This document shows positions 32,608-63,756 of a stretch of DNA of 64,000 nucleotides, piece after piece (position 1 is the stretch's first letter; every line of letters starts with the position of its first letter). Both the position numbers and the translations under genes were made by a program. A model generated the notes under the pieces. That model ran no database searches and was not told where the DNA came from. It worked only from the letters and a program-made list of their open reading frames with translations. The stretch lies in contig CAYZYT010000004.1 of NCBI GenBank assembly GCA_964482725.1, positions 23,824 to 87,823 on the forward strand, given 5' to 3'. Source of the DNA: an uncultured bacterium. Its GTDB lineage: Bacteria; Omnitrophota; Omnitrophia; Omnitrophales; Aquincolibacteriaceae.

Positions 32608-33114
32608 TTAGAAAACCAGACTCCCGAGACTCCACAAGACCAGGGAGATAAAGCCGGCCAAAAGACACAGGTTGGGCCACCCTCTCATAGAGACCGGCAT
32701 GTGTGAAAAAAGGAGTTTGTATCTTAGACCTAGAAAACAACTCTGGAAAAGAGCGATCCCTGCGGACACGACCCCCGCCCCAAAGATCCCCTGCACGAGA
32801 CCGTGCCGTTCCGAGGAGATCATAAAAACGCTTGCCATGACCGCAAGAAAAAAAACATCCGTTTTTTTCTGGTAGCGCGAAAGCAGGTAGGCGGCCAGTC
32901 CGGGACCGAGGATCGCATATTCCTGGGCAATCAGTGGGCTCTTTCCAAAAGCTGTGGCAACCGCCCCAAGAGCAAGGATCAGGCTCACCGTAAGAAAAAG
33001 ATCCGTCGCTTCGCGCCCAATGCGCTTGAGCCCTTCGACAGGTTTTTGCAAAGGGGCGGGTCTCGCGCCGCGCATCGCCAACAAAAAGCCGAAGGAGATG
33101 ATCAAAAAATACAC
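32608..33114 (-). CDS. Small 6-TM membrane protein (168 aa); possibly a highly divergent RnfA/RnfE (NqrDE)-like subunit
   Basis: Six hydrophobic segments were read. The size and position immediately downstream of the rnfC/rnfD-like genes are the only support; no conserved RnfA/E motif was recognised. Confidence 0.45.
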   Translation of the reverse strand: MYFLIISFGFLLAMRGARPAPLQKPVEGLKRIGREATDLFLTVSLILALGAVATAFGKSPLIAQEYAILGPGLAAYLLSRYQKKTDVFFLAVMASVFMISSERHGLVQGIFGAGVVSAGIALFQSCFLGLRYKLLFSHMPVSMRGWPNLCLLAGFISLVLWSLGSLVF

Positions 33115-33115
33115 G

Positions 33116-33643
33116 TTAACCTCTCCTTCGATAGGGTTGATTTTTCCATAAGAAAGCCACGGCCGCGATCACAAGAAACATACCGGCCGGCTGCTCGAAT
33201 AGGTGCATTCCCAAACGCTTTTCCCCGACCTCCCGAACGAGCGCCAAGAGCATCACGAAGCCTGCGAAACCGGTCCCGGCGAGCACCCGCTCAAAAAAAT
33301 ACCTCGGGACTTCCCTGGAGAATACTCGCACATGGCCGGGTTTCGCCGTCTCTTCGAGAAAAGAGACGGGGGCCAGGAAAAAAATGCTTGCGATCCAATA
33401 GGGAGGAAGTTTTGTAAGCGTCCACGCGGCCTGGGCCCAGACGATAAGCCAAAGAAAGAAGGCGCACTTCAGAGAGCGGTCGGGAAAAAAGCGGCGGAAG
33501 AACCAGAAAAAAGCGACCGTGATCCAGAGAAACAAGACAATCCACAGCGCCGCAACTCCGGCCTTGAAAAACCCATACGGGTAGACCATAAAAGGCAGGT
33601 AAGCCAGGAACATTCTCGAGAAAAGGCTTTCGGGTAGCTTCAT
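33116..33643 (-). CDS. Small 6-TM membrane protein (175 aa); possibly a divergent RnfA/RnfE-like subunit
   Basis: Six hydrophobic segments. Its stop is 2 nt from the next gene's start. Same argument as for the preceding gene. Confidence 0.45.
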   Translation of the reverse strand: MKLPESLFSRMFLAYLPFMVYPYGFFKAGVAALWIVLFLWITVAFFWFFRRFFPDRSLKCAFFLWLIVWAQAAWTLTKLPPYWIASIFFLAPVSFLEETAKPGHVRVFSREVPRYFFERVLAGTGFAGFVMLLALVREVGEKRLGMHLFEQPAGMFLVIAAVAFLWKNQPYRRRG

Positions 33644-33852
33644 CGTCTCCCAAACCTCATGATCTTCACCGCCTCAGCATTTGTGCCGCGCAAAGGATCG
33701 CAACAAGCAGGCACAGGAAAAGCGCAAGAAATAGATGTTTTGATAGGGTGCTCACTATCTTTTTGATGTTCATAACGTCCCGGTCTTTATTTTCTTTTCA
33801 CAAAGGGCGGCTGGGGCTATCCTGATGCCCCGTTGATTTTTATTGGAGAAAA

Positions 33853-34710
33853 TCATGACGGATAAGTCGCCTTGAGCGTTTGCTTCGCTTTATAAGGAAC
33901 GGGTTTGAGCCAAAGATCCAGCCAGGGCGTTAAAAGGTTCATTAAAAGGATCGCGTAGGCCGCCGAACGGATCGAAAATCCTTCGAGGTTTAGCCGCGCA
34001 CTTAAAATCGCGGCTCCCAGAACGAAAAAAATTGTTCCCTTGCGCGTTAAAGGCAGGGCTACAGGATCCGCTAAAATAAAAAAAGCCGTCAGGAGGACGC
34101 CGCTAAAAAAGGCGAACGGCATCTCTCGCCCTCCGAACAGAGCCTCGCAAATAAAGCAGCCCGACATGTAAAGAACGGGTGTTTCCCAATAGCTTTGTTT
34201 TTGTTTAAGTAAAAGAACGCCGCCGATCCCAAGCGCCCCAAGCGTCCAAACACTTCCCTCCCCGGCCAAAAGCATCGGCTCGGACATGACGGTGGGAAAA
34301 CAGAGCTGTAAAAATACGCGCGCCAGCAGAACCGGATGTAAAAGATAGGCGCCTTTACCCCCGAAAAGCTCCTTAGCGACAAAAACCGCCATAAAAACAC
34401 CGAGGATCAAGATCTCGGAGGAACATCCCGAAGGCATGAGGAGTGAGAAAAGCGCCGCGGCAAGCACGGCTTCCCCGCTCCGCAAACCTTCTTTTTTCTG
34501 GAAAAGTTTCGCGGCCAGAAATTCGAACGCGATCGCGCTCACCAGACAGATCAAAAGAACGCGCAGAATTTCCGCGTGTCCTGTAAAACAGGCGCTCACA
34601 AAAAGAGGTATCATGGCGATCCCCTGTCCCCAGGACCGTCGCGCTAAAGAGTCCGCCGCGCGTATATGCGGTGGCAGGCCCGTTTTGTAAGACAAGATCA
34701 CTTCAGCCAT
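33853..34710 (-). CDS. rnfD: RnfD/NqrB-family membrane subunit, short at 285 aa
   Basis: C-terminal motifs ADPVALPLTRKG...LGAAIL and ILLMNLLTPWLD match the RnfD/NqrB TDPV...T..G and LLMN..TP.ID signatures. It overlaps the rnfC-like stop. Confidence 0.6.
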   Translation of the reverse strand: MAEVILSYKTGLPPHIRAADSLARRSWGQGIAMIPLFVSACFTGHAEILRVLLICLVSAIAFEFLAAKLFQKKEGLRSGEAVLAAALFSLLMPSGCSSEILILGVFMAVFVAKELFGGKGAYLLHPVLLARVFLQLCFPTVMSEPMLLAGEGSVWTLGALGIGGVLLLKQKQSYWETPVLYMSGCFICEALFGGREMPFAFFSGVLLTAFFILADPVALPLTRKGTIFFVLGAAILSARLNLEGFSIRSAAYAILLMNLLTPWLDLWLKPVPYKAKQTLKATYPS

Positions 34711-36073
34711 GCATCACCCCCGCCTTCGAAAAAACACTGGCTTGGCGGATCAGTGCCAGCATCGGCCTTTTGGCGGGACACACATAGGCGCAGTTGCCGC
34801 ATTCCATGCACTCCGCAGCATCCCATGCTGCCGCCACTGCAAATTCTTTTCGTTCCGCGGCAAGCGCGATCATCACGGGCGAAAGTGAGACGGGGCAATG
34901 ATCCACGCACCGGTTACAACGAATGCAAGGTTCTTCGGATTCTTCCTTCGCGATCTCCTGGGGAAGCGCAAGAATGGCATTCGTCCCGGCCATAACGGAA
35001 ACCTCCGTGCCCCTTTGCGCTGTCCCGGCCATAGGCCCCCCCATCAGGACTTTTTGGGGACCGCGCATGACTCCTTTGCAGGCGTGGATCGCATCGTGAA
35101 AAGAAATTCCGATCGGCAACCAAAGGCTACGGGGTTCGACAACGCATTCTCCGCCCACGGTCACGACTCTTTCATAAAAAGGTTTCTGGTAGGCCACCGC
35201 TTCGTAAACCGCAAAGGCCGTGGAGGCCGGGAAAACCACCGCCGTCTCTTCGCTTCCCGGGAACCAGGCCTGAAGCAGCGTGCTTTCAAGGCCCTGCGGG
35301 TAGAGCGCTGGCACGGTCCGGACTTCTGCGTGATCCCATTTTAGAAAGTAGATCTTGCTCTTAAAAAGCTCGATCATCTCAAGATTACAGCTCTCGAACG
35401 CCAAAATGATCTTTTGGGCGCCGCAAGCTTTTCTGAGCAATTCGGCCCCCTTTACGATTTCCACGGGGTGAGACATGGCCAGCACTTGTTCGCAGGTAAT
35501 GTAAGGCTCCGGCTCGCAACCGTTGATGATGATCGTTCGCGCTCCAGCCTGCCGCCCAAGCTTAGCGTGGACGGGTTCCATCCTGGGATCTGTGGTCACA
35601 AGCCCGGAGTGCTGGAAAATCTTCAGAAGCTCTTCGGCCGGGATCTGCTCCCAGCCTTTGCGCATCTCCGGCGACGGCAGGACTTTGGGCTCTCCGTGCC
35701 TTCGGATCTCGATCGTCCGGATTTCGCCACCCATCGCACTCGGAAAAGACGCGATTTTCTCCACCACGCCGGACATGCTCGCGTGAAGGAACACACCCTC
35801 CGGTCCTTGCGGCGCCTCTCCGCCTTTCATTTTCTTTTTATCCTCGGTCGTGGAAACGGCCCCACTTTCCGCGTCTTTGTATGAGATCGGGATTGGGACT
35901 GCGATTTTTTGTCCGCTCTGAACCATATCTCCGACTCGAACGCAGGGCTCTGAGAACGCGGGAATGGGCACATGGATCTTTTCGGGAGGATAAGGACGCT
36001 TTAAATTCCAGTTCAGCAGGCTTGCGTCTTTTTTTCTTTCGAGCTGGATGCCGATAGCTTTCTTTTTAGGCAA
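34703..36073 (-). CDS. rnfC: RnfC-like subunit with two 4Fe-4S ferredoxin motifs but a degenerate FMN/NADH glycine-rich motif
   Basis: NGCEPEPYITCE (the RnfC NGAECEPYLTCD motif), LMGGPMAG, and CIRCNRCVDHCP plus CMECGNCAYVCP (two Cx2Cx2Cx3CP motifs). Where GLGGAGFPT is expected, the sequence is TTDPRMEPVHAKL. Confidence 0.65.
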   Translation of the reverse strand: MPKKKAIGIQLERKKDASLLNWNLKRPYPPEKIHVPIPAFSEPCVRVGDMVQSGQKIAVPIPISYKDAESGAVSTTEDKKKMKGGEAPQGPEGVFLHASMSGVVEKIASFPSAMGGEIRTIEIRRHGEPKVLPSPEMRKGWEQIPAEELLKIFQHSGLVTTDPRMEPVHAKLGRQAGARTIIINGCEPEPYITCEQVLAMSHPVEIVKGAELLRKACGAQKIILAFESCNLEMIELFKSKIYFLKWDHAEVRTVPALYPQGLESTLLQAWFPGSEETAVVFPASTAFAVYEAVAYQKPFYERVVTVGGECVVEPRSLWLPIGISFHDAIHACKGVMRGPQKVLMGGPMAGTAQRGTEVSVMAGTNAILALPQEIAKEESEEPCIRCNRCVDHCPVSLSPVMIALAAERKEFAVAAAWDAAECMECGNCAYVCPAKRPMLALIRQASVFSKAGVMHG

Positions 36074-38343: not shown

Positions 38344-38366
38344 AAAAAAGAGAGTTGCCTCTCTCA
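38344..38366 (-). terminator. Putative intrinsic terminator (GAGAGAGGCAACTCTCTC stem followed by a T6 run on the minus strand) overlapping the stop of the lipoprotein gene, 45 bp upstream of bioA
   Basis: Hairpin and T-run read directly on the minus strand. Confidence 0.45.
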
Positions 38367-39491
38367 GATATTATCATAATTCATTTTTTCAACAAAAAGA
38401 CCCCACGCGCCATCCAGTTCGCGGGCCTTCTCCTCCGGTAAATTGGCGCGGAAATATTTCTCCGTATCTTCCCGGGAAAGAGGCCCGATTTGAAGTTCGT
38501 ACTGAAGATAATCGCGAAAAAACTTTGAGAAAAAGATGTTTTTTCCTTCCAGAAAAAAAGAGGTGAGGCTCCAGGCCCTCAAATAAAATTCCATTTTTTC
38601 CTCCGCCGCCGGGGTCTGCTCGTAGCGCTCCCAGGACGCGAAAAGGCCGAGCGCGCTCTTTAGCTTCCCTTCTTCATAAAGGCTTTGAAGCCATCCCAGG
38701 ATCTCCTCAATAATAGGCCGGGCTCCCGCCTTCGCCAGTTTAAAAGAAAGGTAGTTCGAAAGGCCTTCATCCAAAAACATCGAAGGTTGTTTTGCATAAA
38801 ACCCTCTCACAAAACAGTGCGCGAACTCATGGGCGAGGGTCCACCGGATATCGGCGCCGGTAAAAAAAACCACGATCTCGTTTTTTCCTATGTTGTAGGC
38901 CCCTGAAGAGAGTTGTTTGAAGTCGAAATCCTTTTCTTTCCAAAGGGCTTTGTACTCTTCGGGACGTCCCGCAACACTGATCCTTAAAAAAGGCATTTCT
39001 CCTTGGGGGGGGCCAAGGATCTCTCCCAGCAACGCCTTTTCTTCGCTTATAAGAGCGGCGAGATTCTGGATCAAGGGTTCGCTATAGGCTTGAGGAATAT
39101 TGGTCACGAGCTCACCCCCGGCAAAGGAGATCTTCCGGGCTTGATCCCAAGACGGTTCTTTTTTCATAGCCTCAGAAAACCTCTCCAGGGCGCGTACTTC
39201 CTCGATAGCCTCTTGAAGGGTTAACCCTCCGTAATCCTGCAACTGATCTCCTTTTTGAAGAGCCCGTTGATAAACCTCAATCGCTTTCTTAAAGTCCCTC
39301 TCCCCGATCAGTGCTTGCGCATAAGAATCATAAAGATTTCGATCCTCGGGATTGTCTTGGAGAAGTTTTTCGAAAGAAGCCGCGCCCATCGCCTTTCCCG
39401 CTGGCCGTTCACTCAACCCGCTCTCGGTCGCACACCCGCTAAAAAAAAGGAGGATCCCCAGGACCGCTACTTCCTTTGTAAAAAGGTTCAT
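38364..39491 (-). CDS. Lipoprotein with an HExxH zinc-metallopeptidase-like motif (TLAHEFAHCF) and TPR-like N-terminal region
   Basis: Lipobox LLFFSGC. The HEFAH motif. It overlaps the bioF stop by 4 nt, so it appears translationally coupled inside the bio operon. Confidence 0.6.
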   Translation of the reverse strand: MNLFTKEVAVLGILLFFSGCATESGLSERPAGKAMGAASFEKLLQDNPEDRNLYDSYAQALIGERDFKKAIEVYQRALQKGDQLQDYGGLTLQEAIEEVRALERFSEAMKKEPSWDQARKISFAGGELVTNIPQAYSEPLIQNLAALISEEKALLGEILGPPQGEMPFLRISVAGRPEEYKALWKEKDFDFKQLSSGAYNIGKNEIVVFFTGADIRWTLAHEFAHCFVRGFYAKQPSMFLDEGLSNYLSFKLAKAGARPIIEEILGWLQSLYEEGKLKSALGLFASWERYEQTPAAEEKMEFYLRAWSLTSFFLEGKNIFFSKFFRDYLQYELQIGPLSREDTEKYFRANLPEEKARELDGAWGLFVEKMNYDNI

Positions 39492-40642
39492 TTTTTTCCC
39501 TTCGAAAACGCCGTCATTAACTTTGCGATGTCCTGCCGGGTATGTGTGGCAGAGACCGTGATCCGCAGGCGCGCCTTGCCCTTAGGAACGGTCGGATAAC
39601 GCACGGCAGGAATGAAAATCCCTTGCGAAAGAAGTTTTTCGAAAAACTCCATCGCTTTCCTTTCGTCGCCCACCAGGACCGGAATGATCGCGGACTCCGG
39701 CTTCGCGAGGGAAAAACCCAACCCCTGAAATCCCTGGTGAACGTGATGGATATTCGACCAAAGTTTTTTCCTCAAAAGAGGCTCTTCTTCGATCACGCAA
39801 AGAGCTTCGCGAGCGGCCTCACAAAGAACGGGGGGAAGCGCGGTCGCAAAAATGAACGGCCTCGCAAAATTCACGAGGGTGTCGATCAGCGCCCTGTCTG
39901 CGGCGACAAAGCCGCCCAATCCGCCGAGAGCCTTCGAAAGGGTCCCCATAATGACATCGATCTTTTTAGAAAGCCCCCCAGCCTCCGTCGCGCCGTAACC
40001 GTGCTCTCCTAAAACGCCTGTGCCATGCGCGTCATCCACCACAAGCACTGCGCCGTATTTCTCTTTGAGCCGCACGAGTTCTTTTAAGTCCGCGAGATCG
40101 CCATCCATGCTGAAAACCGTCTCCGTCACAAGGATCCGCCGTCTCGCACCCCGCGAAACACGAAGAAGATCTTCGCATTTTTTGTAATTCTTATGGGGGA
40201 AAACGCGCAGTTCGGCTTTGGAAAGCCGGGCGCCATCGACGAGCGAGGCATGGCACAGCTTGTCCATGATAATAACGTCCTGCTCGCCGGCCAGAGCCGT
40301 CAGAATGCCAAGGTTCGCAAGAAAGCCCGCGGCGAAGACAAGCGCGCTTTCTTTCCCTTTAATCTGAGCCAGCTTTTTTTCCAGGGCTTCGTGCGCCTTC
40401 GTTGTTCCTGAGATAAGCCGGGCCGCACCCGCGCCTACGCCGTATCGTTCTAGCGCTTTTTGTGCGGCCTCCACCACTCGCGGATGACGACTGAGACCCA
40501 GGTAATCGTTGCCGCAAAAAAGAAGCATCTCCCGCCCGTCAAAAGAGGCGCGCGTGCCTTCGTGCTCCTCCAGGAGGCGAAGCCGACGATAAAGGTTCTG
40601 CCGTTTGAGCGCTTGAAGCTCTTGCCGGAAAAGATTTTTCAT
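39488..40642 (-). CDS. bioF: 8-amino-7-oxononanoate synthase
   Basis: Class-II aminotransferase fold, the FSMDGD region and overall BioF similarity. Confidence 0.85.
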   Translation of the reverse strand: MKNLFRQELQALKRQNLYRRLRLLEEHEGTRASFDGREMLLFCGNDYLGLSRHPRVVEAAQKALERYGVGAGAARLISGTTKAHEALEKKLAQIKGKESALVFAAGFLANLGILTALAGEQDVIIMDKLCHASLVDGARLSKAELRVFPHKNYKKCEDLLRVSRGARRRILVTETVFSMDGDLADLKELVRLKEKYGAVLVVDDAHGTGVLGEHGYGATEAGGLSKKIDVIMGTLSKALGGLGGFVAADRALIDTLVNFARPFIFATALPPVLCEAAREALCVIEEEPLLRKKLWSNIHHVHQGFQGLGFSLAKPESAIIPVLVGDERKAMEFFEKLLSQGIFIPAVRYPTVPKGKARLRITVSATHTRQDIAKLMTAFSKGKK

Positions 40643-41844
40643 ACGTTGCGGAGAAGAACTGTGGCGACCTGGCCGCCGAAGCCCATGGAGATCTTGACGG
40701 CATGGGCGATCTTGTGAGGCCGCATTTTCCCGGGAGTATAATCGAGGTCGCAGGCCGGATCTTTTTCTTCCAGCCCCACGGTCGGAGGGATGAAACCTTC
40801 GTGAATCCCAAGAAGCGTCGCAATAATCTCAAGGGCCCCCGTGGCTCCCAGCATGTGTCCGGTGGCACCCTTGGTCGAGCTCATGGGAATCTTGTAGGCC
40901 TGTTCCCCAAACGCCTCTTTGAGCTCCAGCGTTTCATAAAGATCTCCATGCCTCGTACCGGTGCCGTGCAAATTCAAGTAATCGATCTCCCGAGGCGTGA
41001 TCCCGGCTCTCTTGAGAAGAACCCCAAGCGTGTAAGACAAGGCGTGTTCATTAAGATCAAAATGGATCGGCTGTTTGCTGTCCTGACCATAAGCCGATTC
41101 AACGATCTCGCCGTAGATCCTTACACCGCGCGCCTTCGCGCTTTCAAGCGTTTCAAGAAAGACCACTCCCGCGCCTTCCCCGATCAGAAATCCGTTCCGT
41201 CGCTTGTCGAACGGGCGAATGTCGTGGGTCGCAAGCGCCTTCATGTTTTTGTAGCCCCCGAGCATGAGGGGCGCGATCGAGGCATCCGTGGCTCCCGCGA
41301 GGCAATATTCGGCATCCCCTTCGGAGACCATACGAAACCCCTGGACGATGGCCACGGTTCCGGTCGCGCACGCCGCCACGTAACATTTGGCCGGCCCCTG
41401 GATCTTCATGCGCCGGGCGATCCACTGGTCCGCAAAATTCGGGACCGCGCTTGTGAACATCCTTGCGCCTAGGATCGCGCTTGGGTTACGCGCGAACCTT
41501 TCTTTGAATTTCCCAAGGCTATGAACGCCGCCTTTGCTGGAACTGACAGAAAGCGCGACGTCGTAAGGATCTACAGCCGCCATGTCGAACCGGGCATCAA
41601 GCACAGCCTGTTCTGCTGCCGCGACGGCGTATTGAATGAAAGGATCCAGGAGATGCGTTCCGTAAGAACGTGCATTAAAGTTTTTTAGGCGGAAAACGGG
41701 CGGGAAGGGATACCCCTCCAGGATGAAAGGATCCGCGCTTTCTTTTCCGGAGATACCTTTTTTAAGGTTCTCGCGAAATTCGACAAGGGTGTTCCCGATC
41801 GAAGAAAGAACGCCCATGCCCGTGACTACCACGCGTCGTTTCAT
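40639..41844 (-). CDS. Beta-ketoacyl-ACP synthase, KAS I/II type (FabF-like), embedded in the biotin operon
   Basis: The active-site triad can be read: Cys in AACATGT, His in LHGTGT and His in TGHMLGATG. Confidence 0.85.
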   Translation of the reverse strand: MKRRVVVTGMGVLSSIGNTLVEFRENLKKGISGKESADPFILEGYPFPPVFRLKNFNARSYGTHLLDPFIQYAVAAAEQAVLDARFDMAAVDPYDVALSVSSSKGGVHSLGKFKERFARNPSAILGARMFTSAVPNFADQWIARRMKIQGPAKCYVAACATGTVAIVQGFRMVSEGDAEYCLAGATDASIAPLMLGGYKNMKALATHDIRPFDKRRNGFLIGEGAGVVFLETLESAKARGVRIYGEIVESAYGQDSKQPIHFDLNEHALSYTLGVLLKRAGITPREIDYLNLHGTGTRHGDLYETLELKEAFGEQAYKIPMSSTKGATGHMLGATGALEIIATLLGIHEGFIPPTVGLEEKDPACDLDYTPGKMRPHKIAHAVKISMGFGGQVATVLLRNV

Positions 41845-41889
41845 GTGTTGGAGGATCCCTTCGGGTGTGAATTGAGAGGAAATTCTACC

Positions 41890-42618
41890 CTAGAAAGGAC
41901 GGGATTCAAAATGAAACACTTGCCCCGTCACCTGGCACATCCGGTCGGAGGAGAGAAAAAGAAGAAACTCTGCGACCTCTTCGGGATTCGAAAAGGTTTT
42001 GAGAGGACTTTCCTCAAGGTTGTTCTCCTGGATGTCCCGAGGAACGCTCGCGGTCATCGCCGACTGCATGAATCCCGGGTTCACGGCATTCACAAGGATT
42101 TTTTTACGCCCAAGTTCCTTGGCGAGCGTCTTGGTCATGGCGATCAGCCCGCCTTTTGAAGCGGCGTAATTCGCGGCGCCGGCAAGCCCGCTCAACCCCG
42201 CGCGACTGACGATCGTGAAAATCTTGCTGGGCGGTCTCCTCAAAAGAAGCGGCAAAAGCTTCTGGGTGAGATAAAAAGGCGCCTTGAGATTGACCCGCAA
42301 GACATCGTCCCATTGTTTTTCAGACATCTTTTCGATCCGCGTGTCCGCGGTCGCGGCAGCATTGTGGATCAGGACATCCAGAGATTCGACCTTTTTTTTA
42401 AATGTGGCGGCAAAGGTCTCGATCGCTTGGGTGTCAGCAAGATCGAGGGGAAATCTTCGCGCACCGGTTTGTTCGAGCTCTTGGGATCTCTCGACCGCTT
42501 TAAAATAAGTGAAGAATACACGCGCACCCTGTTGGACGGCCTTCCGGACGAACGCCTGTCCAAGCGGACTGGTTCCCCCGGTGATGAGAATTGTTTTGTC
42601 TTTTAATGAAAATTCCAC
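41890..42618 (-). CDS. Short-chain dehydrogenase/reductase, 3-oxoacyl-ACP reductase (FabG)-like
   Basis: ILITGGTSPLG cofactor motif, NAA, and YAASKGGLIAMTK (the YxxxK catalytic motif). Confidence 0.8.
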   Translation of the reverse strand: MEFSLKDKTILITGGTSPLGQAFVRKAVQQGARVFFTYFKAVERSQELEQTGARRFPLDLADTQAIETFAATFKKKVESLDVLIHNAAATADTRIEKMSEKQWDDVLRVNLKAPFYLTQKLLPLLLRRPPSKIFTIVSRAGLSGLAGAANYAASKGGLIAMTKTLAKELGRKKILVNAVNPGFMQSAMTASVPRDIQENNLEESPLKTFSNPEEVAEFLLFLSSDRMCQVTGQVFHFESRPF

Positions 42619-51152: not shown

Positions 51153-52097
51153 TCAGCCTCGCGGTAAACCGATCTTCTGGAGAACGCGGTCGAGGTCGTC
51201 CAAAGAAAAATACTGGATCTCAACGCGCCCTTCCTTCTGGTTCTTTCGCGGGTAGATCTTCGCCTGCGTCCCGAGGAAATGCGTGAGGCGTGTTTCAAGG
51301 TCCACGATCTCGGCGCTAAGATGCCGGGCGGTTTTCGCTTTGCGTTTGTGGGCATTGCTTCGATTGACAATCGCTTCGACCTGGCGGACCGACAAATTCT
51401 CCTCGACGATCCTTTTGGCCATTTGCCGCTGATGCTCCGGAGACAGAAGGCCAAGAAGCGCGCGGGCATGTCCCGCCGAAAGCCTACCGTCCGCCAAATA
51501 TTGTTTCACTTCCGGAGGTAGACGTAAAAGCCTGAGCGTGTTCGTAACCGTCACGCGGTTCTTCCCCACTCGTTTCGCCACTTCTTCTTGAGAGATTGTT
51601 CTCTCTTCCACGAGCCGCTGATACGCTTCCGCCTCTTCTATGGGATTCAGGTCTTCGCGTTGAATGTTTTCGATCAGCGCCCACTCCAAAAAATCTTCCT
51701 CGGCAATATCTTTGATGATGGCGGGCACTTCCGCAAGCCCGCAAAGCGTCGCGGCCCGGAATCGCCGCTCACCGCACACGATCTCAAAATTGCCGTCGCT
51801 TTTCTTTTTCACAATGATCGGCTGTAACACGCCTTTTTCGCGAATAGAGTTGGCGAGCTCCTCGATGGTCTCTGCGTTGAAATTTTTACGCGGCTGGTCT
51901 GCGTTGGGCGCGATGCGGGATATGGGTATCAGCTGAAACGCCGCCTCTTTTGTTGAAAGAACGCTTGTCTGGACGCTTTCTGGTTCCGTCGTGAGGGTCG
52001 CTGTTGCAGAAGAAAGATCCTTTTCTGTCGCGGCTACATGATCTTTGTAGCTATCAGGGATCAGCGCGCTTAATCCTTTACCTAGAGCCTTTTTCAT
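51153..52097 (-). CDS. parB: Chromosome partitioning protein ParB/Spo0J
   Basis: ParB box IVCGERRFRAA and an HTH region. Confidence 0.9.
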   Translation of the reverse strand: MKKALGKGLSALIPDSYKDHVAATEKDLSSATATLTTEPESVQTSVLSTKEAAFQLIPISRIAPNADQPRKNFNAETIEELANSIREKGVLQPIIVKKKSDGNFEIVCGERRFRAATLCGLAEVPAIIKDIAEEDFLEWALIENIQREDLNPIEEAEAYQRLVEERTISQEEVAKRVGKNRVTVTNTLRLLRLPPEVKQYLADGRLSAGHARALLGLLSPEHQRQMAKRIVEENLSVRQVEAIVNRSNAHKRKAKTARHLSAEIVDLETRLTHFLGTQAKIYPRKNQKEGRVEIQYFSLDDLDRVLQKIGLPRG

Positions 52098-52133
52098 GTT
52101 CGTAACTCCTTATTTATAAACAAGTTGTGTGTT

Positions 52134-53027
52134 TTATGAATTTGTTTGAGCAGGTTGGGATTGTTCCGCTTCCGGCGCTGGCGCCGGCACCTTTCCCTCT
52201 TCTGAAACAGGAGAAGCGCTGGCCTCCTTTGCGCTCGCAGCAAGACTGTCGCGATCTTCGTCTGAACCAAAACGCATTAAAAATTCTTTTCCGAGCTCTG
52301 TATAGGCCAAAGAGCCTCGGCTGTGCGGGTCATAAATAACCGCAGGCTTTCCAAAGCTCGGTGCCTCGGAAAGCTTCACAGACCTTGGGATCACGCTCTG
52401 AAAGGTCTTTTCTTTAAAATAATTCCGGACCTCTTGTATAACCTGTTGCGTCAAGTTGGTTCGGACGTCTGCCATCGTCAATATCACGCCCCCAAGCTCA
52501 AGGTCCGCGCTCAGATTTTTTTTGACAAGCTGATATGTGTTTAGAAGTTGTCCAAGTCCCTCTAACGCATAGTATTCGCATTGAAGCGGTATGATTATAT
52601 AACCACTTGCTGTTAAAGCGTTTATGCTTATAAGACCAAGTGATGGCGGGCAATCCAGAAGAATATAGTCATAATCACTAGAAATCTTTTTTAGCTGCTC
52701 CCTGAGAACAAACTCTCTTTTCTCTTGTCCAATTAGGTGCATCTCAGCTCCGGCAAGGTGCGCGTTCGAAGGTATAATCCATAGATTTTCTATGGCTGTA
52801 TTTTTGATGCTTTCTTTTGGGTCTGAGTTTTCCACAAGAAGTTGATAAGCTGTGGATTCGTTTTCGTTTTTCTCGATCCCAACACCGCTCGTAGCATTAC
52901 CTTGTGAGTCGAGATCTATTATTAAAACTTTCTTCCCGAGACAGGCTAACACAGTCGCTATGTTAACCACGGAGGTTGTTTTCCCGACACCGCCTTTTTG
53001 ATTAAAAAATGAGAATATTTTCCCCAT
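52134..53027 (-). CDS. parA: Chromosome partitioning ATPase ParA/Soj with a ~40-aa acidic/proline-rich C-terminal tail
   Basis: Deviant Walker A NQKGGVGKTT. It is 297 aa against about 255 aa typical. Confidence 0.9.
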   Translation of the reverse strand: MGKIFSFFNQKGGVGKTTSVVNIATVLACLGKKVLIIDLDSQGNATSGVGIEKNENESTAYQLLVENSDPKESIKNTAIENLWIIPSNAHLAGAEMHLIGQEKREFVLREQLKKISSDYDYILLDCPPSLGLISINALTASGYIIIPLQCEYYALEGLGQLLNTYQLVKKNLSADLELGGVILTMADVRTNLTQQVIQEVRNYFKEKTFQSVIPRSVKLSEAPSFGKPAVIYDPHSRGSLAYTELGKEFLMRFGSDEDRDSLAASAKEASASPVSEEGKVPAPAPEAEQSQPAQTNS

Positions 53028-53039
53028 ACACCCTCCAGA

Positions 53040-53055
53040 TGTTTCACGTGAAACG
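53040..53055. promoter_or_regulatory. parS site TGTTTCACGTGAAACG (15 of 16 matches to consensus, 14-bp perfect palindrome), 13 bp upstream of the parA start
   Basis: Direct read. The parS consensus TGTTNCACGTGAAACA is established knowledge. Confidence 0.75.
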
Positions 53056-53338
53056 TTCTTTATTGTGGCGCTCGTTTAACCCTATAATGCTTGGCTTGTA
53101 ATACATCGGCCTGTCTTTCTCATATTTTACATATATTTTCATTCCTGGCAATTTAAATTTGTTTTAATCGCGGCCCTATAAAATTCTCCCTGTGAAGTTT
53201 CAGCGATCAGCAAATCGAAAATCTCTTGATAAAGACTTCGTTCCAAAAAAATCAAAGCGGGAGCCGCTAGCTAAAAAAACGCGCTGAAAGCCTCGCTTGA
53301 CGCTTTTCTTTCTAGCCTTTCTCGATTTGTTTTCACCC

Positions 53339-53354
53339 ATGTTTCACGTGAAAC
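53339..53354. promoter_or_regulatory. parS site TGTTTCACGTGAAACA (perfect consensus; extended 22-bp perfect palindrome CCATGTTTCACGTGAAACATGG at 53336-53357)
   Basis: Direct read. It is 299 bp from the first parS. Confidence 0.85.
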
Positions 53355-53672
53355 ATGGTATATGTTCCAAATAAAAACTCGTAACTATCCTAATATCATA
53401 GCGATGCCAATTCATAGTTTTGTCGCTATCAAATGAAAGGCTTGCAATTGCTCACGTTGCGCATCAAGTTCGAATTCTTTCGGACTCATTTATCAAGCGG
53501 TGGCCAATTCCTCTTTGTGGGCCTAATAAATCCTTTCGCTTTGCGCTGGAATGTTTCGTCTGGAGCGGATTCCGCTGCATTTGGAGGAAGGCTTTGCCAC
53601 AGCGAGGCTCTTTGCTATGGAGGCCTCGGACAATGCGCGATGGGCTTTGGGAAAGTCTCGCTGGAAGAACTT

Positions 53673-55499
53673 CTACTTCTTGAGGGCGTCTTGCTTCTTT
53701 TTCTCGATAAAAACAGCTAAGAGGGAAAGATCGCAGGAGGATATTCCGGGAAGGCGCGCCGCCTGACCGATTGATTCGGGTTGAATTTTTTTTAGTTTTT
53801 CTTTGGCCTCTCGACCGATCCCAGGAACTTCATCGTAATTCAAGTTTGCGGGTATTTTTCTTTTTTCAATTTTTGAAAATTTCTGAACTTCTCGCCTTTG
53901 TTGCGCAATATATCCTTCATATTTTATTTCCGTTTCAACGCTGTGAATTTCATCGTCAGACAGGTTGCAGGAGTGTAACCCGTTTGAAATGAGCTGCTTA
54001 TAACCTACTGTTGGACGCTTTAGATATTGATAAAGCGTGTCGTTTCCTATTTTTTTTGTTTTAAGCTCCCGCATGTCGTTCTGTATCCGGTCCATGCGTC
54101 CATTAAATTCTGCGAAGTCTTTTTCCGAAATAAGATCGAACTGGTGTCCGTAGAACATAAGTCTTTCGTCGGCGTTGTCCTGCCGGAGTAGCAACCGGAA
54201 TTCGGCTCGCGATGTGAACATCCGGTAGGGCTCGTTGGTGCCGCAAGTTACGAGATCATCGATCATCACCGCAATATAGGCCTCGGTCCGATCAAGCACA
54301 AATTCGCTGCTACCGCAAAGCCTGCGAATAACGTTGAGGCCGGCCATTAACCCCTGAGCCGCGGCTTCTTCATAGCCGGAAGTACAGTTGATCTGGCCCG
54401 CAAAGTAAAGATTCCGGATTTTCTTTGTTTCTAGAGAGTGTTTCAGTTGGGTCGGCGGAGCTGCGTCATATTCGATGGCATATCCAAACCTCAGGATCTC
54501 GGCGTCCTCAAGCCCTCGGATCTCATGAAGGGCCGCTTCCTGGACGTCTTTAGGAAGCGAAGTTGAAAAGCCGTTCACGTAGATCTCAAAAGCATCGCGC
54601 CCCTCAGGCTCCAAATAGATCTGATGACTTTTTTTATCTTGGAATTTCACGACCTTGTCTTCCACCGAAGGACAATACCTTGGCCCAACTCCCAGGATCT
54701 GTCCGGCATAAAGCGGGGAACGATTTAAATTTTTACGGATGATGTCATGGACTTTTTCGTTGGTGTGCGTTAAATAGCAGGGAAGTTGCTCGACGCTTAG
54801 TTTTTTTGTTCGATAGGAAAAAGGATGGGGAGGCTCATCGCCTCGCTGTTCTTCCAACAACTCCCAACGAATGCTTTTCTGATGGAGGCGGGGAGGCGTT
54901 CCGGTTTTGAAACGGACGAGCTCGATCCCGTGGCTCCGGAGCGATGCGGAAAGTCCGATCGCGGGCGGCTCATCGCGTCGGCCTCCCGGTGTTTTTTCTT
55001 CTCCGACATGGATCAACCCCTGCAAAAAAGTGCCTGTGGTCAAAACCACGCTTTCGCCTAAAAAGGTTTCGCCTTCTTTCGTGCGAACGCCATAGCACGC
55101 GCCGTCTTTAACCAAGAGATCCACGACCTGTCCTTGCCGGAGGGTAATGTTTTTTTCCGCCTCGAGCGCGCGCTTCATATAAAGCTCGTATTGGTGTTTG
55201 TCCGCCTGCGCTCGCGGCGCCCACACGGCCGGCCCCTTGGACTTGTTGAGCATGCGGAACTGGATCCCTGTCGCATCCGTCGCAAGACCCATTTCACCGC
55301 CAAGCGCATCGATCTCGCGAACCATGTGCCCTTTGGCAAGTCCGCCGATCGCCGGGTTGCAGGACATGCGCGCGATGGCATTCGTATCCATAGTGATCAC
55401 AAGGACAGGGAATCCGCATCGTGCAATGGCCAGAGAGGCTTCGACGCCGGCGTGTCCGGCGCCGACAATGATGGCGGCGTATTTTTGGGTGGAATTCAT
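53673..55499 (-). CDS. mnmG: tRNA uridine 5-carboxymethylaminomethyl modification enzyme MnmG (GidA)
   Basis: FAD motif IVGAGHAGVEA and full-length GidA similarity (608 aa). Confidence 0.92.
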   Translation of the reverse strand: MNSTQKYAAIIVGAGHAGVEASLAIARCGFPVLVITMDTNAIARMSCNPAIGGLAKGHMVREIDALGGEMGLATDATGIQFRMLNKSKGPAVWAPRAQADKHQYELYMKRALEAEKNITLRQGQVVDLLVKDGACYGVRTKEGETFLGESVVLTTGTFLQGLIHVGEEKTPGGRRDEPPAIGLSASLRSHGIELVRFKTGTPPRLHQKSIRWELLEEQRGDEPPHPFSYRTKKLSVEQLPCYLTHTNEKVHDIIRKNLNRSPLYAGQILGVGPRYCPSVEDKVVKFQDKKSHQIYLEPEGRDAFEIYVNGFSTSLPKDVQEAALHEIRGLEDAEILRFGYAIEYDAAPPTQLKHSLETKKIRNLYFAGQINCTSGYEEAAAQGLMAGLNVIRRLCGSSEFVLDRTEAYIAVMIDDLVTCGTNEPYRMFTSRAEFRLLLRQDNADERLMFYGHQFDLISEKDFAEFNGRMDRIQNDMRELKTKKIGNDTLYQYLKRPTVGYKQLISNGLHSCNLSDDEIHSVETEIKYEGYIAQQRREVQKFSKIEKRKIPANLNYDEVPGIGREAKEKLKKIQPESIGQAARLPGISSCDLSLLAVFIEKKKQDALKK

Positions 55500-55505
55500 A
55501 AAAAC

Positions 55506-55587
55506 TTCAGGGTGAAGGAGGGCGGATGGAGGCTGGTGTAAAATCAGGCTTTGCGCCTTCCTCCATCCTCAATCCGTCTTCCTGTTT
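55506..55587 (-). repeat. GGAGG/CCTCC-rich palindromic hairpin element after yidC; family member 2
   Basis: It shares the identical 19-mer TGCGCCTTCCTCCATCCTC and the GGATGGAGG / GAAGGAGGGCG arms with the 25733-25806 element. Confidence 0.45.
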
Positions 55588-57213
55588 TTATTGGTCTTCG
55601 TGGTGCAGAACGATCACGATACGATTAATGAAGGTCTGCTGGATGATCGAAAAAACGTTTTGCAGGGTCCAATAAAGCGTGAGCCCTGACGGCATGTTGT
55701 AACAAATAAACCCGAAAAAGATCGGCATGATGTTCATGATGGTCTGCTGCTCCGGGCTCGAGCCGGGCTGCGCGGGCATGAGCTTCTGATACCAGACCTG
55801 GGAGATCGCCATCGTAAGCGGCAAAATATTGAGCGCGTTCCATCCTAAAAAGGGGACCGTAAAAGGAAGTGTCATGAAATGATCCGGCGCGGAAAGATCT
55901 TTGATCCAACCGATGAACGGAGCTCCGTGAAGCTCGATCGCCTCAGGCAAAAGCTTGAACATGGCAATAAAAACCGGGATCTGGATCAGCATGGGAAGAC
56001 AGCCCATCATCGGATTCACTTTGTTCCGCCGGTAAAGCTCCATGAGCGCCTTCTGGGATTTCGCGGGATCTTTCTTGTTGTGCTCTTGGATCGCTTTCAT
56101 CTTCGGCGCCAAGATCTGCATTTTTTTCATGCTTGCGTAGCTGATGTGCGTGAGCGGCGCAAAAAGCAGCTTGATGAGAAAGGTCAGGATCACAAGCGCC
56201 CACCCAAAATTATGCGTGTACTGGTTCAGGAATTTCAGAACCGAGAGAATGCCCGTCTTGAAAAGCCCGAAGAATCCCCTGGAAAAAACTTCTTCGAAAC
56301 CCACCCCAAAACTTTTGAGCACCTCATAACGCTGCGGCCCGGCATAGATCAAAAAGCTTCTCTCTCCTTCGCCTCCCGCGGGCACCGTGAGGGGTTCCAG
56401 CGTCATTTGTCCCCAAAGATTTTTTTTGTCGGCCTTGGCGCTTCCCTCGATGATCTTTCCGTCCGGCTTCACGAGCAGCGCAAAATACTTTTTAATGAAT
56501 CCCGCCCAGGCGGTCGGGTCCGGAAAAGAAAATCCTTTTTTCCTAACGCCTGAAAGATCCTTAGTTTGAACCTTGTCGGTATAGGCCACCGCATCGTAAT
56601 AACCGTAATTTTTCTGATAGCCTTCCTCGTAGCTCATCGCATAATTCAGCGTCACGGGAAAATGCTTCTCTCTCCCGGAAAGATTCTTGATCCGGACGAC
56701 AAGATCGATCACGGGCTTGTTTTCACGGAACAAGTACGTCTTCGTCAGCAAATATTCCCCGGGCAGCTCGTAAGAAAACTCCACGCTTTCGCCTTTGCGC
56801 ACCATTTTAAAAATCGTTTCCGCAAGATCCGCTTTTTCATGCAGCACGCTCACGCCAAAAAGACCGGACTCTCGAGGATCCCCAGAAAAAAAGGTCGTTT
56901 TTGTAAAAGCCTGCCGGCCTTTCTCTCCCAGAAACGAAAGAGACGCGATCGTGCCCCCCAGCGTAGAAAACTCTGCTTTGTAGAAAGAATTCTCCAGAAA
57001 CGCAAGAGCCGGGGCCGCCGCTTTTTCCAGCGCCGTTCCTTTGGAAATGGCGAGGGGCGTCTCTTCCTTGATGGGGGCGGGCGCGCTTTGTGAGACGGCC
57101 GTTTTCGCGGACGTTTTTTGCTGCGGGACCGGATAGAGTTTTTTGACGAGCATGGGATAAAGCAACATGACCATCATGGCAAGCACGATCGCTTTTACGG
57201 TGTTTTTATCCAT
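55588..57213 (-). CDS. yidC: Membrane protein insertase YidC
   Basis: N-terminal TM, large periplasmic domain, and C-terminal 5-TM core with YidC-typical motifs. Confidence 0.9.
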   Translation of the reverse strand: MDKNTVKAIVLAMMVMLLYPMLVKKLYPVPQQKTSAKTAVSQSAPAPIKEETPLAISKGTALEKAAAPALAFLENSFYKAEFSTLGGTIASLSFLGEKGRQAFTKTTFFSGDPRESGLFGVSVLHEKADLAETIFKMVRKGESVEFSYELPGEYLLTKTYLFRENKPVIDLVVRIKNLSGREKHFPVTLNYAMSYEEGYQKNYGYYDAVAYTDKVQTKDLSGVRKKGFSFPDPTAWAGFIKKYFALLVKPDGKIIEGSAKADKKNLWGQMTLEPLTVPAGGEGERSFLIYAGPQRYEVLKSFGVGFEEVFSRGFFGLFKTGILSVLKFLNQYTHNFGWALVILTFLIKLLFAPLTHISYASMKKMQILAPKMKAIQEHNKKDPAKSQKALMELYRRNKVNPMMGCLPMLIQIPVFIAMFKLLPEAIELHGAPFIGWIKDLSAPDHFMTLPFTVPFLGWNALNILPLTMAISQVWYQKLMPAQPGSSPEQQTIMNIMPIFFGFICYNMPSGLTLYWTLQNVFSIIQQTFINRIVIVLHHEDQ

Positions 57214-57222
57214 AGTGTTTCC

Positions 57223-57432
57223 TTATTGAACGGGGTCGAATCCGCCGGGGTGGAAGGGATGGCATTTACAAATTCTTTGGATCGCAAGTCTCGCGCCAGA
57301 CAGCGCGCCTTTTTTCTGCAAAGCTTCTTCCGCATAAGAGGAACAGCTGGGTGTAAAGCGGCAAGAGGGGCCCAGAAGAGGCGCAACGAACGCGCGATAA
57401 AAATGGATAGCAAGGATCAGGAAATGTTTCAC
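57223..57432 (-). CDS. yidD: Membrane protein insertion efficiency factor YidD
   Basis: FYRAFVAPLLGPSCRFTPSCSSYAEEAL...RLAIQRICKCHPFHPGGFDPV. GTG start at 57432 sits in a GTGA overlap with the rnpA stop; the longer track ORF (57528) would overlap rnpA by 100 nt. Confidence 0.8.
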   Translation of the reverse strand: MKHFLILAIHFYRAFVAPLLGPSCRFTPSCSSYAEEALQKKGALSGARLAIQRICKCHPFHPGGFDPVQ

Positions 57433-57806
57433 ACCCAGGCTCCTGCTTTTTTGAAAAGATTGATAAGGTCTTCTTCCGTGGCTAAAAAAGAAGGTTTCCT
57501 TTGTGTGTGTCGCACCTTCACCAAACAAACCGCCTCAGGTCGAAGGTTCGCTTGCTGCTCGCGGAAGATCTCACGGACGCGGCGCTTCCAAACGTTCCGC
57601 CCCACAGAGGTCGGATCTGTTTTGCGGCTGACCACGATCCCGATCATGGGCTTTTCTCTCAGCGACGCGCGTTTTTTGTCGTCCCGCTTGCCGACCCACA
57701 AATAAAAAAACTCTCCTCGGGCGAAGCGTCCGCTCTCGACGAGATGTTTGAAGGTTGTTTGCCGGCGAATCCGCTGATCCGCCCCGAGCCGTTTCTTTGG
57801 CTCCAA
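57429..57806 (-). CDS. rnpA: Ribonuclease P protein component (TTG start)
   Basis: Basic RnpA-like sequence, conserved position between rpmH and yidD. Start codon is uncertain. Confidence 0.8.
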   Translation of the reverse strand: MEPKKRLGADQRIRRQTTFKHLVESGRFARGEFFYLWVGKRDDKKRASLREKPMIGIVVSRKTDPTSVGRNVWKRRVREIFREQQANLRPEAVCLVKVRHTQRKPSFLATEEDLINLFKKAGAWV

Positions 57807-57809
57807 CGC

Positions 57810-57947
57810 TTATACTTGGGTCAGCTTTTTCCGGCCCTTTTTTCGGCGACGCGCAAGGACTTTTCGTCCTCCGGCGGTCCGCGTTCGGGCAAGAAAGCCG
57901 TGCTTGTTACGACGTTTTCTCTTGGAAGGCTGGTATGTTCTTTTCAT
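57810..57947 (-). CDS. rpmH: 50S ribosomal protein L34
   Basis: Manual translation gives [45 protein letters not shown], a canonical L34. It is not in the ORF track because it is under 60 aa. Confidence 0.9.
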
Positions 57948-59638: not shown

Positions 59639-59771
59639 GTTGGTTTTCCACAAAAAAACTTTTTTATATCTCGTTCTTTTTTAAATAGTTGTGTAGGATA
59701 TCCACAAATCCACAGCTCTTATTACTACGGTTACTGTTTTTAAATATAGAATAAAAGAAGAAGGAGTTTGT
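59639..59771. promoter_or_regulatory. DnaA-box cluster and AT-rich tract between dnaA and dnaN (alternative or second oriC module)
   Basis: TTTTCCACA and ATATCCACA (one mismatch each to TTATCCACA), AATCCACAG, and an AT-rich run AAAAAAACTTTTTTATATCTCGTTCTTTTTTAAATAG. Confidence 0.5.
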
Positions 59772-60872: not shown

Positions 60873-60905
60873 TCGGGAAAAAGGACGATAATAGAACGGG
60901 TTTTC

Positions 60906-63756
<2,851 letters not shown>

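Follow-up and report, generated by a model that had tools for sequence, protein, structure and literature searches.

Does a gene cluster whose first product is annotated as RnfC necessarily encode an Rnf complex? The question is raised by a locus of an uncultured Omnitrophota bacterium (contig CAYZYT010000004.1 of assembly GCA_964482725.1), which was analyzed within a stretch of 64,000 nucleotides (64 kb), referred to below as the window. In canonical Rnf, RnfC carries flavin mononucleotide (FMN) and two [4Fe-4S] clusters, RnfD has covalent FMN plus riboflavin, and RnfG has covalent FMN; RnfA and RnfE each supply two cysteines to a [2Fe-2S] cluster, and RnfB is a polyferredoxin (PMC12174285, PMC9588780). 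On the minus strand of the window, positions 32608-36073 hold five intact open reading frames (ORFs), closely spaced or overlapping, and the same five genes occur with identical spacing in an independent Logan assembly (L081). As judged from the encoded proteins, their order, rnfC-rnfD-[35 amino acids]-rnfE-rnfA, is the clostridial-type order C-D-G-E-A, with rnfG shrunk and rnfB absent from the operon. We lean towards the view that these genes, hereafter marked with a prime, encode a five-subunit membrane complex (RnfC', RnfD', the 35-residue remnant, RnfE' and RnfA') which derives from Rnf, has been stripped of nearly all redox cofactor sites and is nevertheless a functional derivative.

RnfC' retains both iron-sulfur clusters but has lost the flavin site

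RnfC' passes the curated rnfC model TIGR01945 (271.6 bits against a cut-off of 245.95) and matches the solved RnfC chains of Acetobacterium woodii, Clostridium tetanomorphum and Azotobacter vinelandii with E-values of 1e-54 to 2e-49 (for 9eri_C, E = 1.3e-54). Its Pfam domains (Complex1_51K, RnfC_N, SLBB and Fer4) correspond to a barrel-sandwich N-domain, a NuoF-like domain without the glycine loop for FMN and reduced nicotinamide adenine dinucleotide (NADH), an SLBB domain and a 2x[4Fe-4S] ferredoxin domain. The combination that defines RnfC, a NuoF-like domain plus SLBB plus a C-terminal 2x[4Fe-4S] domain, is thus present. The altered glycine loop reported by the first-pass annotation, which had been made from the sequence of the window alone, is real and not a misread: 'GIVGLGGATFPTHVKL' of A. 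woodii RnfC aligns residue by residue with 'GLVTTDPRMEPVHAKL' of RnfC'. The latter stands where canonical RnfC has 'GIVGLGGA(A/T)FPTHVKL', and the replacement motif is kept across the family. At the glycine loop RnfC' reads 'TTDPRMEPV', and 'NGCEPEPY' stands for the canonical 'NGAECEPY'; the FMN/NADH site of RnfC (G-x-G-G-A-x-F-P-T together with 'NGAECEPY') is therefore missing.

A search with one genome per species gave 141 matches, of which the best 80 loci (L001-L080) were kept. Forty-nine of them (L001-L049) are of the reduced type, and all the named ones are metagenome-assembled genomes (MAGs) of Omnitrophota. The others (L050-L080) have canonical rnfCDGEAB. They include the named Omnitrophota L050 and L076, then L051 and two Verrucomicrobiota; the rest are MAGs whose labels are mostly Nitrospirota or Thermodesulfovibrionia. 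The G-x-G-G-A-x-F-P loop occurs in 0 of L001-L049 and is matched in 30 of L050-L080, with L076 keeping GLGGATLPT. The family comprises at least 120 protein clusters for RnfC', 112 for E' and 131 for A', and all named homologues come from Candidatus Omnitrophota.

Both Cx2Cx2Cx3C clusters noticed at first pass are retained without exception: the eight [4Fe-4S] cysteines are invariant in 113/113 sequences of the reduced family and in 31/31 canonical ones. In addition, RnfC' has acquired family-specific cysteines at three positions, C44 (108/113), C186 (111/113) and C310 (113/113). The pre-existing C332 is kept, and the canonical C188 is lost.

One RnfC' departs from this pattern. That of L035 (1785-3095; from MAG nzgw335, which also carries L028) retains part of the glycine loop, 'GLVGLGGAMKPVH'; it is otherwise of the reduced type, is followed by a DsbA-like gene and may be an evolutionary intermediate.

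RnfD' lacks the FMN-threonine loop and most riboflavin residues

The second subunit had been described as a short RnfD/NqrB homologue, and this description holds. RnfD' matches PF03116 at 162.9 bits, which is its only domain, so that it is not fused to another protein. With TIGR01946 it scores 125 bits, below the cut-off of 207; the RnfD/NqrB-family membrane subunit of Rnf is thus present, though under the threshold of this model. The alignments with 9eri_D and 7zc6_D (E about 7e-26) fall into two separate pieces. In the family alignment, about 14 residues of RnfD' stand in place of about 46 in canonical RnfD, and the lost segment held the FMN-binding threonine '(S/T)xATPL' as well as the 'GETS' glutamate. 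With this loop deleted, the threonine that binds covalent FMN (Thr153 in C. tetanomorphum) is gone, and a search of D' for the flavinylation motif [STA][GATS]A[ST] found none. The roles of Thr153, Glu185 and Asp248 in C. tetanomorphum RnfD have been described (PMC9588780).

Riboflavin binding in NqrB requires N200, N203 and D346 (PMC9293633). We mapped the riboflavin and Na+ residues by alignment onto N121/N124/D248 of C. tetanomorphum and N200/N203/D346 of NqrB. The equivalents in RnfD' are Y122, H125 and D215, i.e. two of the three riboflavin residues are substituted (N to Y122 and N to H125) and the site is not preserved. The 'ADP' aspartate, D215, is retained; it is equivalent to D248 of C. 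tetanomorphum, which is implicated in Na+ binding (PMC9588780). Also kept in the family alignment is the N-terminal 'PPHIR' arm, which in C. tetanomorphum RnfD is buried in RnfC (PMC9588780).

The two remaining membrane proteins are divergent RnfE and RnfA without [2Fe-2S] ligands

Public databases list the 175- and 168-residue proteins, each with six transmembrane (TM) helices, as hypothetical and without a Pfam domain, and at first pass neither could be recognized. Searches of Pfam and NCBIfam with the two proteins gave sub-threshold matches only (Rnf-Nqr, E = 0.14; rnfA, E = 0.0014). Profile and fold searches nevertheless assign both. A family profile of the 168-residue protein, built from Omnitrophota orthologues, matched 8ahx_A (E = 6.9e-8) and 9eri_A (E = 1.8e-6) in the PDB, and also 7zc6_A and the NqrE chain 7xk3_E; hhalign gave 96% probability against canonical RnfA, and the top five Foldseek matches of its AlphaFold2 (AF2) model (predicted local distance difference test, pLDDT, 64) are all RnfA/NqrE. 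For the 175-residue family, hhalign gave 78% probability against canonical RnfE (E = 1.8e-5, near full length) and 7% against RnfA; the sole PDB match of its profile was 9eri_E (E = 0.15), and the top 11 Foldseek matches of the AF2 model (pLDDT 65) are all NqrD/RnfE. The fold evidence agrees with the profiles and with the gene order. By profile and predicted fold, then, the 175-residue protein is a highly divergent RnfE/NqrD homologue and the 168-residue protein a highly divergent RnfA/NqrE homologue. The six-TM pair of Rnf is therefore present, with the curated Pfam and NCBIfam thresholds not reached.

In canonical Rnf the [2Fe-2S] ligands are Cys25/113 and Cys26/109 of RnfA/RnfE (PMC9588780). 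Comparison with canonical alignments of RnfA and RnfE showed that all four cysteines are missing. The first RnfE cysteine is lost through a change of 'LCP' to 'AYLP' in E', and a hydrophobic residue occupies the position of the second. Among 100 family representatives, position 16 of E' is Leu in 79 and position 17 is Pro in 97, and at neither ligand column does cysteine figure among the most frequent residues. In A', both ligand positions lack a conserved cysteine, and hydrophobic residues or a gap are found instead; this subunit does retain the C-terminal 'R..L....P...G.P' loop. When the E' profile was run against 1.84 billion proteins, it collected 106 representatives at 50% identity, all of them short (69-308 residues, mostly 150-200), and the aligned representatives of 140-210 residues carry the cysteine-free 'AxLP' motif. 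Since the aligned matches are short and cysteine-free, the profile apparently did not reach canonical RnfE, which numbers thousands of sequences.

A [2Fe-2S] ligand is also missing in some of the canonical loci. In L053 (11003-11635), L055, L056, L062, L066 and L075, RnfE reads 'IVAFASIF' where other RnfE proteins read 'IVVNCIIL'. These MAGs of Nitrospirota/Thermodesulfovibrionia have otherwise canonical rnfCDGEAB; the second [2Fe-2S] cysteine of RnfE is missing and the other three ligands are kept.

The rnfG slot holds a conserved 35-residue peptide and RnfB is absent

The first-pass annotation had taken a hydrophobic 35-codon ORF at about 33667-33774 for a filler of the gap behind rnfD'. The ORF exists, at 33666-33773, and turns out to be a conserved gene in the slot of rnfG. 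Its product runs from MNIKK through a hydrophobic helix to LRR and is predicted to be a single helix with the N-terminus inside. By tblastn the gene was located in L001, L003-L009 and L011-L023, where it lies between D' and E' and is 34-77% identical; its ATG usually overlaps the D' stop in these relatives, and gene callers miss it. In sister clades (L049, L034, L038 and L039) the same slot is occupied by a degenerate full-length RnfG' of 166-228 residues, in which the flavinylation motif [S/T]GA[S/T] is lost. We infer that the 35-residue peptide is a remnant membrane anchor of RnfG. Position and topology are the grounds for this origin, because a profile of the peptide gave no significant match to RnfG N-termini (best E = 0.68, 460 sequences). 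In any case, where Rnf has RnfG with its periplasmic FMN-binding domain and [S/T]GA[S/T] motif, the slot holds only a 35-residue TM peptide.

Neither RnfG nor RnfB had been seen in the window at first pass, and tblastn of the 64 kb confirmed this: with canonical RnfG, canonical RnfB, degenerate RnfG' and DsbA-like proteins as queries, only the ferredoxin motif of RnfC' itself was matched. The RnfB polyferredoxin is thus missing from both the operon and the window. In reduced loci rnfA' is followed by pilT, with no ORF in the position of rnfB, and in canonical loci rnfA is followed by an ORF of 275-430 residues. No match to ApbE or FMN_bind was found among the scanned window ORFs of at least 200 residues, and the operon contains no NqrF-like gene.

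Clear matches of the six-TM proteins to RnfA and RnfE, together with rnfG or rnfB nearby outside the window, had been named at first pass as the marks of a conventional operon. Remote matches of this kind were found, but they do not restore a conventional reading, even with rnfG or rnfB encoded elsewhere. Could the locus nonetheless be a conventional Rnf of merely cosmetic divergence, with rnfG and rnfB elsewhere in the genome? RnfC' does pass the NCBIfam rnfC cut-off and is annotated as RnfC in public databases, and the searches for rnfG and rnfB were limited to the 64-kb window. However, the FMN ligands of RnfC and RnfD, the [2Fe-2S] ligands of RnfA/E and two of the three riboflavin residues are missing from the encoded proteins, and the operon occupies the position of canonical rnfC in a related MAG (L051). 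Because the ligands are absent from C', D', E' and A' themselves, RnfG or RnfB encoded in trans could not rescue this explanation, which we regard as very improbable.

Selection and origin of the reduced family

We compared the five genes of the window with those of eight relatives by pairwise Nei-Gojobori estimates of nonsynonymous and synonymous divergence (dN and dS), with dS ranging from about 0.5 to saturation (>2). The dN/dS ratio is 0.11-0.17 for C', 0.13-0.20 for D', 0.06-0.20 for E' and 0.17-0.30 for A'; for the 35-residue peptide it is 0.15-0.38, given where dS was measurable. Across Omnitrophota, purifying selection acts on each of the five genes.

Throughout the reduced family the genes keep the order fabG-fabF-bioF-bioA-bioD-(mnmA)-[rnf']-pilT-polA-coaE. 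In L051 the same bioF-bioA-bioD-mnmA context is followed by a larE-like gene and then by a canonical RnfC ('GIVGLGGAAFPTH', NGAECEPY), which in a distance tree groups with the canonical RnfC proteins of the named Omnitrophota L050 and L076. Given the shared synteny and the canonical rnfC of L051, the reduced cluster is most simply explained as a same-position descendant of a canonical operon and not as an extra paralogue. These observations suggest that a canonical rnfCDGEAB operon once stood at this chromosomal position and gave rise to the cluster. Which canonical group was the source is left open by the neighbour-joining tree because of the long branch of the reduced family. A functional tie to the adjacent pilT or to bioF/bioA/bioD was considered and rejected as unsupported, because synteny is conserved over the whole block from fabG to coaE, which is found around a canonical rnfC as well.

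Within the phylum, the loci form a graded series. It starts with canonical operons, followed by the type C'-D'-G'-E'-A' (L049). In a sister clade of the reduced family, a DsbA-like gene lies between C' and D' (L031-L034, L036, L038-L040, L044 and L047); in L026, L028 and L035 it follows rnfC', and the contigs end before rnfD'. The window and L001-L024 have the type C'-D'-35aa-E'-A'. In L045 (7983-10025, with pilT directly next) and L046 (7983-10058), C' and D' are fused into proteins of 680-691 residues. Finally, rnfC' stands alone in L030 (7995-9371), where convergent ABC-transporter genes follow, and apparently also in L041 (7992-9407), where no RnfD/E/A-like ORF follows it on the same strand, the only strand considered. 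The cytoplasmic subunit RnfC' is thus the one that persists longest. One member of the sister clade, L038, comes from Ca. Taenariivivens baikalensis, which belongs to a family assigned to the class Omnitrophia. Members of this class are described as respiratory or host-associated and as lacking the Wood-Ljungdahl pathway, and a 'conserved Rnf complex' is on record for two acetogenic classes, Gorgyraia and Velamenicoccia (PMC10066038).

A gradient that runs down to C'D' fusions and to rnfC' alone, in a phylum with reduced genomes (PMC10066038), might be read as decay, with pseudogenes heading for loss in a reduced, host-dependent genome. Decay would not be expected to leave intact ORFs with dN/dS of 0.06-0.38 at dS of about 0.5 to above 2, to fix new family-specific invariant residues, or to keep the gene order in dozens of species-level genomes, and we give this explanation hardly any credence.

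The DsbA-like genes bring up another possibility, namely that the cluster is an electron conduit between a cytoplasmic Fe-S (ferredoxin-level) reductant and periplasmic thiol:disulfide oxidoreductases. It would be an analogue of DsbD/CcdA or DsbB on an Rnf scaffold, with thioredoxin-fold partners replacing flavinylated RnfG. The sister-clade proteins have an N-terminal membrane anchor followed by between one and three DsbA/Thioredoxin_4 domains, all with a CP[FY]C site, and are encoded inside the operons; moreover, flavinylated and thioredoxin-like carriers of electrons outside the cytosol have been described as replacing one another (PMC8238504). The clade of the window, however, has no DsbA-like gene in the operon or in the 64 kb and has deleted every periplasmic part (the RnfD loop and the soluble domain of RnfG). 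Nor does either clade have a membrane cofactor site or a conserved cysteine pair in D'/E'/A' for the crossing of ~30-40 Å: conserved Cys pairs that could form a thiol relay were sought in all three subunits and none was found, the 'CFIC' of RnfD' being present only in the closest relatives. We consider a conduit of this kind improbable. To a similarly low degree we entertain the idea that a metal or Fe-S site with cysteine ligands (C44, C186, C310 and C332) has arisen from the FMN pocket of RnfC', a change with which the complex would link cytoplasmic electrons of Fe-S level to the envelope and, in sister clades, to the DsbA-like proteins, making it a flavin- and quinone-free DsbD/DsbB analogue.

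Possible function of the cluster

In canonical Rnf, electrons run from ferredoxin through [2Fe-2S], the periplasmic FMNs, riboflavin and RnfC to NAD+. Such a loop is not expected here because the ligands are absent. Going by its sequence, the cluster is probably not an energy-conserving ferredoxin:NAD+ pump and should not be counted as one. The first-pass proposal of a non-canonical Rnf/Nqr-related membrane oxidoreductase was right about reduction and altered cofactor content, which it even understated. Its further suggestion of an oxidoreductase with a different electron donor found no support, because no transmembrane electron path is retained and only the cytoplasmic [4Fe-4S] pair survives.

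What might such a complex do? The still-working part would be the Fe-S protein RnfC', which combines two [4Fe-4S] clusters with a former FMN pocket that has been remodelled and contains three newly fixed cysteines, and which persists even where the membrane genes have disappeared. Docked on the retained N-terminal arm of RnfD', it could exchange electrons directly with a cytoplasmic partner or sense the redox state of that partner. The transporter-like D'/E'/A' core, together with the 35-residue helix, would hold it to the membrane and might also provide a redox-gated path for cations, but would not act as an electron-driven pump. Of the functions considered we favour this membrane-tethered Fe-S electron-transfer or redox-sensing module, though tentatively and at less than even odds.

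Several points weigh against our view. Function is deduced here from absences, and cofactors could be bound in a new way; in particular, a flavin might still be held by Tyr122 and His125 of RnfD'. Beyond the 64-kb window there may be a second canonical Rnf or partners acting in trans. The AF2 models of E' and A' have pLDDT of only 64-65 and weak Foldseek E-values (0.02-0.3), albeit with specific match lists; as both models are of modest confidence, the fold evidence for these two subunits is supportive, not decisive. Finally, E' shows the strongest conservation of all the subunits (dN/dS about 0.06), stronger than a passive anchor seems to need, and this strong constraint therefore points to a function of the membrane core itself.

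The last point leads to a further explanation, in which the membrane core is a redox-independent channel, transporter or structural scaffold and RnfC' a structural or regulatory cap, like NqrA in Na+-NQR (an NADH:quinone oxidoreductase that translocates Na+). All intramembrane and periplasmic cofactor sites are gone, as such a role would allow, E' is the most constrained subunit (dN/dS 0.06-0.08 among close relatives), and D215, the aspartate implicated in Na+ binding, is kept. Furthermore, RnfD is related to Amt and urea transporters, and cofactor-free NqrA provides a precedent (PMC12174285). RnfA/E form an alternating-access pair. Yet a purely structural cap would need neither the eight invariant Fe-S cysteines nor the three newly fixed ones. 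Other proposed residues of the Na+ path have changed (N124 to H, N90 to M) or are missing through deletion (E185), the cluster ligands of E'/A' have been replaced by hydrophobic and not ion-binding residues, and in some lineages (L030) rnfC' occurs without an adjoining membrane subunit. A redox-independent core thus seems unlikely to us, if worth keeping in mind.

Locus layout and genomic neighbourhood

The coordinates of the genes and of the features discussed above are collected in Table 1.

Table 1. Genes and sequence features of the rnf' cluster (positions in the 64-kb window)
Feature	Position	Strand	Description
rnfC'	34703..36073	-	456 residues, TTG start
rnfD'	33853..34710	-	285 residues, 8-nucleotide overlap with rnfC'
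Gene of the 35-residue single-TM peptide	33666..33773	-	in rnfG slot
rnfE'	33116..33643	-	175 residues, 6 TM
rnfA'	32608..33114	-	168 residues, 6 TM
Former FMN/NADH loop of RnfC', residues 157-172, 'GLVTTDPRMEPVHAKL'	35558..35605	-	alignment to 9eri_C and 7zc6_C
Two Cx2Cx2Cx3C(P) [4Fe-4S] motifs of RnfC', C383/386/389/393 and C422/425/428/432	34778..34927	-	
Deletion scar in RnfD', residues about 145-158	34237..34278	-	family alignment; query 148-159 against target 146-193 of 9eri_D
Non-coding spacer between the rnfD' stop and the 35-residue gene	33774..33852	-	comparison of window with L011

The non-coding spacer behind rnfD' arises from an insertion of ~82 nucleotides with a GGGGC...GCCCC hairpin, at both ends of which 'ATGA' is duplicated. 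In relatives such as L011, the D' stop overlaps the start of the 35-residue gene (TCATGA). The spacer sequence occurs once in the window, and L081 has the same D'-E' spacing.

In the window, the cluster belongs to a co-directional array. Upstream of rnfC' lie fabG-like and fabF-like genes, bioF, an ORF of 375 residues, bioA and bioD, the last at a distance of 17 nucleotides from rnfC'; pilT, polA and coaE follow downstream. At 38364-39491 and 39488-42618 (minus strand) lie the 375-residue ORF between bioA and bioF, which has no Pfam match and is common only to some relatives (L011 and L014), and the FabF-like and FabG-like genes directly ahead of bioF, which may indicate a pimelate-synthesis module. 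No candidate for bioB was noticed among the large ORFs of the window, in which no search aimed at bioB was made.

Farther away, a giant ORF of at least 3675 residues (1-11025, minus strand) extends past the first position of the window. Such ORFs are reported as typical of the class Omnitrophia (PMC10066038), a hint that the genome belongs there. At the other end, 51153-63756 is the chromosomal origin region, with parB, parA, mnmG and yidC on the minus strand followed by dnaA, dnaN and gyrB on the plus strand. The guanine-cytosine (GC) skew changes sign near 60 kb, and low-GC patches lie at 52-54 and 58-60 kb. The rnf' cluster is ~25 kb from the likely origin.

Implications for annotation and for the Rnf/Nqr family

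Published work refers to a conserved Rnf complex in Omnitrophota (PMC10066038, PMC8542988), and NCBI and JGI name these proteins RnfC. Metabolic reconstructions of the phylum count an 'Rnf complex' from RnfC plus RnfD matches. For the lineages that carry the reduced cluster, likely including the class Omnitrophia, the ferredoxin-driven ion pumping inferred in this way is probably wrong, which is a caution for annotation-based metabolic models. For specialists on Rnf and Nqr, the cluster is a natural experiment on this machine: the five-subunit architecture has been selected after the glycine loop, the flavinylation sites and the [2Fe-2S] ligands were lost. Retention of the architecture after cofactor loss points to a cofactor-independent second function of the RnfD/E/A core or to a stand-alone Fe-S role of RnfC, for which the only precedent is the puzzling cofactor-free NqrA. 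The graded series within one phylum provides a readable evolutionary path from canonical operons to rnfC' alone. The inventory also gains a conserved micro-protein of 35 residues and two protein families that had no annotation, RnfE' and RnfA'.

Comparison with known systems

Our full-text literature search found no description of an Rnf derivative free of both flavin sites and [2Fe-2S]. The closest relative is Rnf itself (RnfABCDGE; 7ZC6, 8AHX and 9ERI), with which the cluster shares homologous RnfC, D, E and A subunits, arranged C-D-(G)-E-A as in the clostridial type, the 2x[4Fe-4S] domain of RnfC, the docking arm and 'ADP' aspartate of RnfD, and the C-terminal loop of RnfA. It differs in the absence of RnfB, the reduction of RnfG to a 35-residue helix, and the lack of the FMN/NADH loop of RnfC and of the FMN-threonine loop of RnfD. 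Two of three riboflavin residues are changed, 0 of 4 [2Fe-2S] cysteines remain, and E' and A' have moved beyond Pfam and NCBIfam calls.

The soluble architecture of RnfC' also has parallels outside Rnf. PrdC of proline reductase, with its NuoF-like, SLBB and 2x[4Fe-4S] domains, works without the Rnf membrane core, as may be compared with the lone rnfC' of L030 and, apparently, L041. The same soluble RnfC-like architecture (NuoF-like plus SLBB plus 2x[4Fe-4S]) is shared by PduS-type proteins. Both PrdC and PduS-type proteins keep the flavin site, and RnfC' scores 85.6 bits with the PrdC model, whose cut-off is 490.

NqrA of Na+-NQR resembles RnfC' in being an RnfC-type subunit without FMN that is still bound to the RnfD/NqrB arm (PMC12174285; PMC9588780). 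However, NqrA has lost both [4Fe-4S] clusters as well, whereas RnfC' keeps them invariant. Moreover, Na+-NQR keeps every membrane cofactor and gains NqrF, and the cluster does neither. Model searches are in line with this distinction: RnfC' matches the nqrA model with E = 0.0015 and the rnfC model with 9e-81, and matches to the nqrA, nqrB and nqrE models are far under the cut-offs. The hallmarks of Na+-NQR, an NqrF input subunit and a cofactor-free NqrA, are thus not found.

Finally, the partial 'NQR/RNF-like' systems of Actinobacteria and the candidate phyla radiation (PMC8238504) are, like the cluster, reduced Rnf/Nqr derivatives with part of the electron path. They are, however, RnfD/NqrB-NqrF fusions accompanied by ApbE and a flavinylated FMN-binding protein, and so are still flavin-based (PMC8238504). 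Features of the type described by Méheust et al. in 2021, RnfD/NqrB fused to the NAD-binding domain of NqrF with an adjoining ApbE or FMN-binding protein, are absent from our locus. By comparison with these systems, the cluster of Omnitrophota has lost the flavinylation sites altogether and has kept the C, D, E and A subunits.

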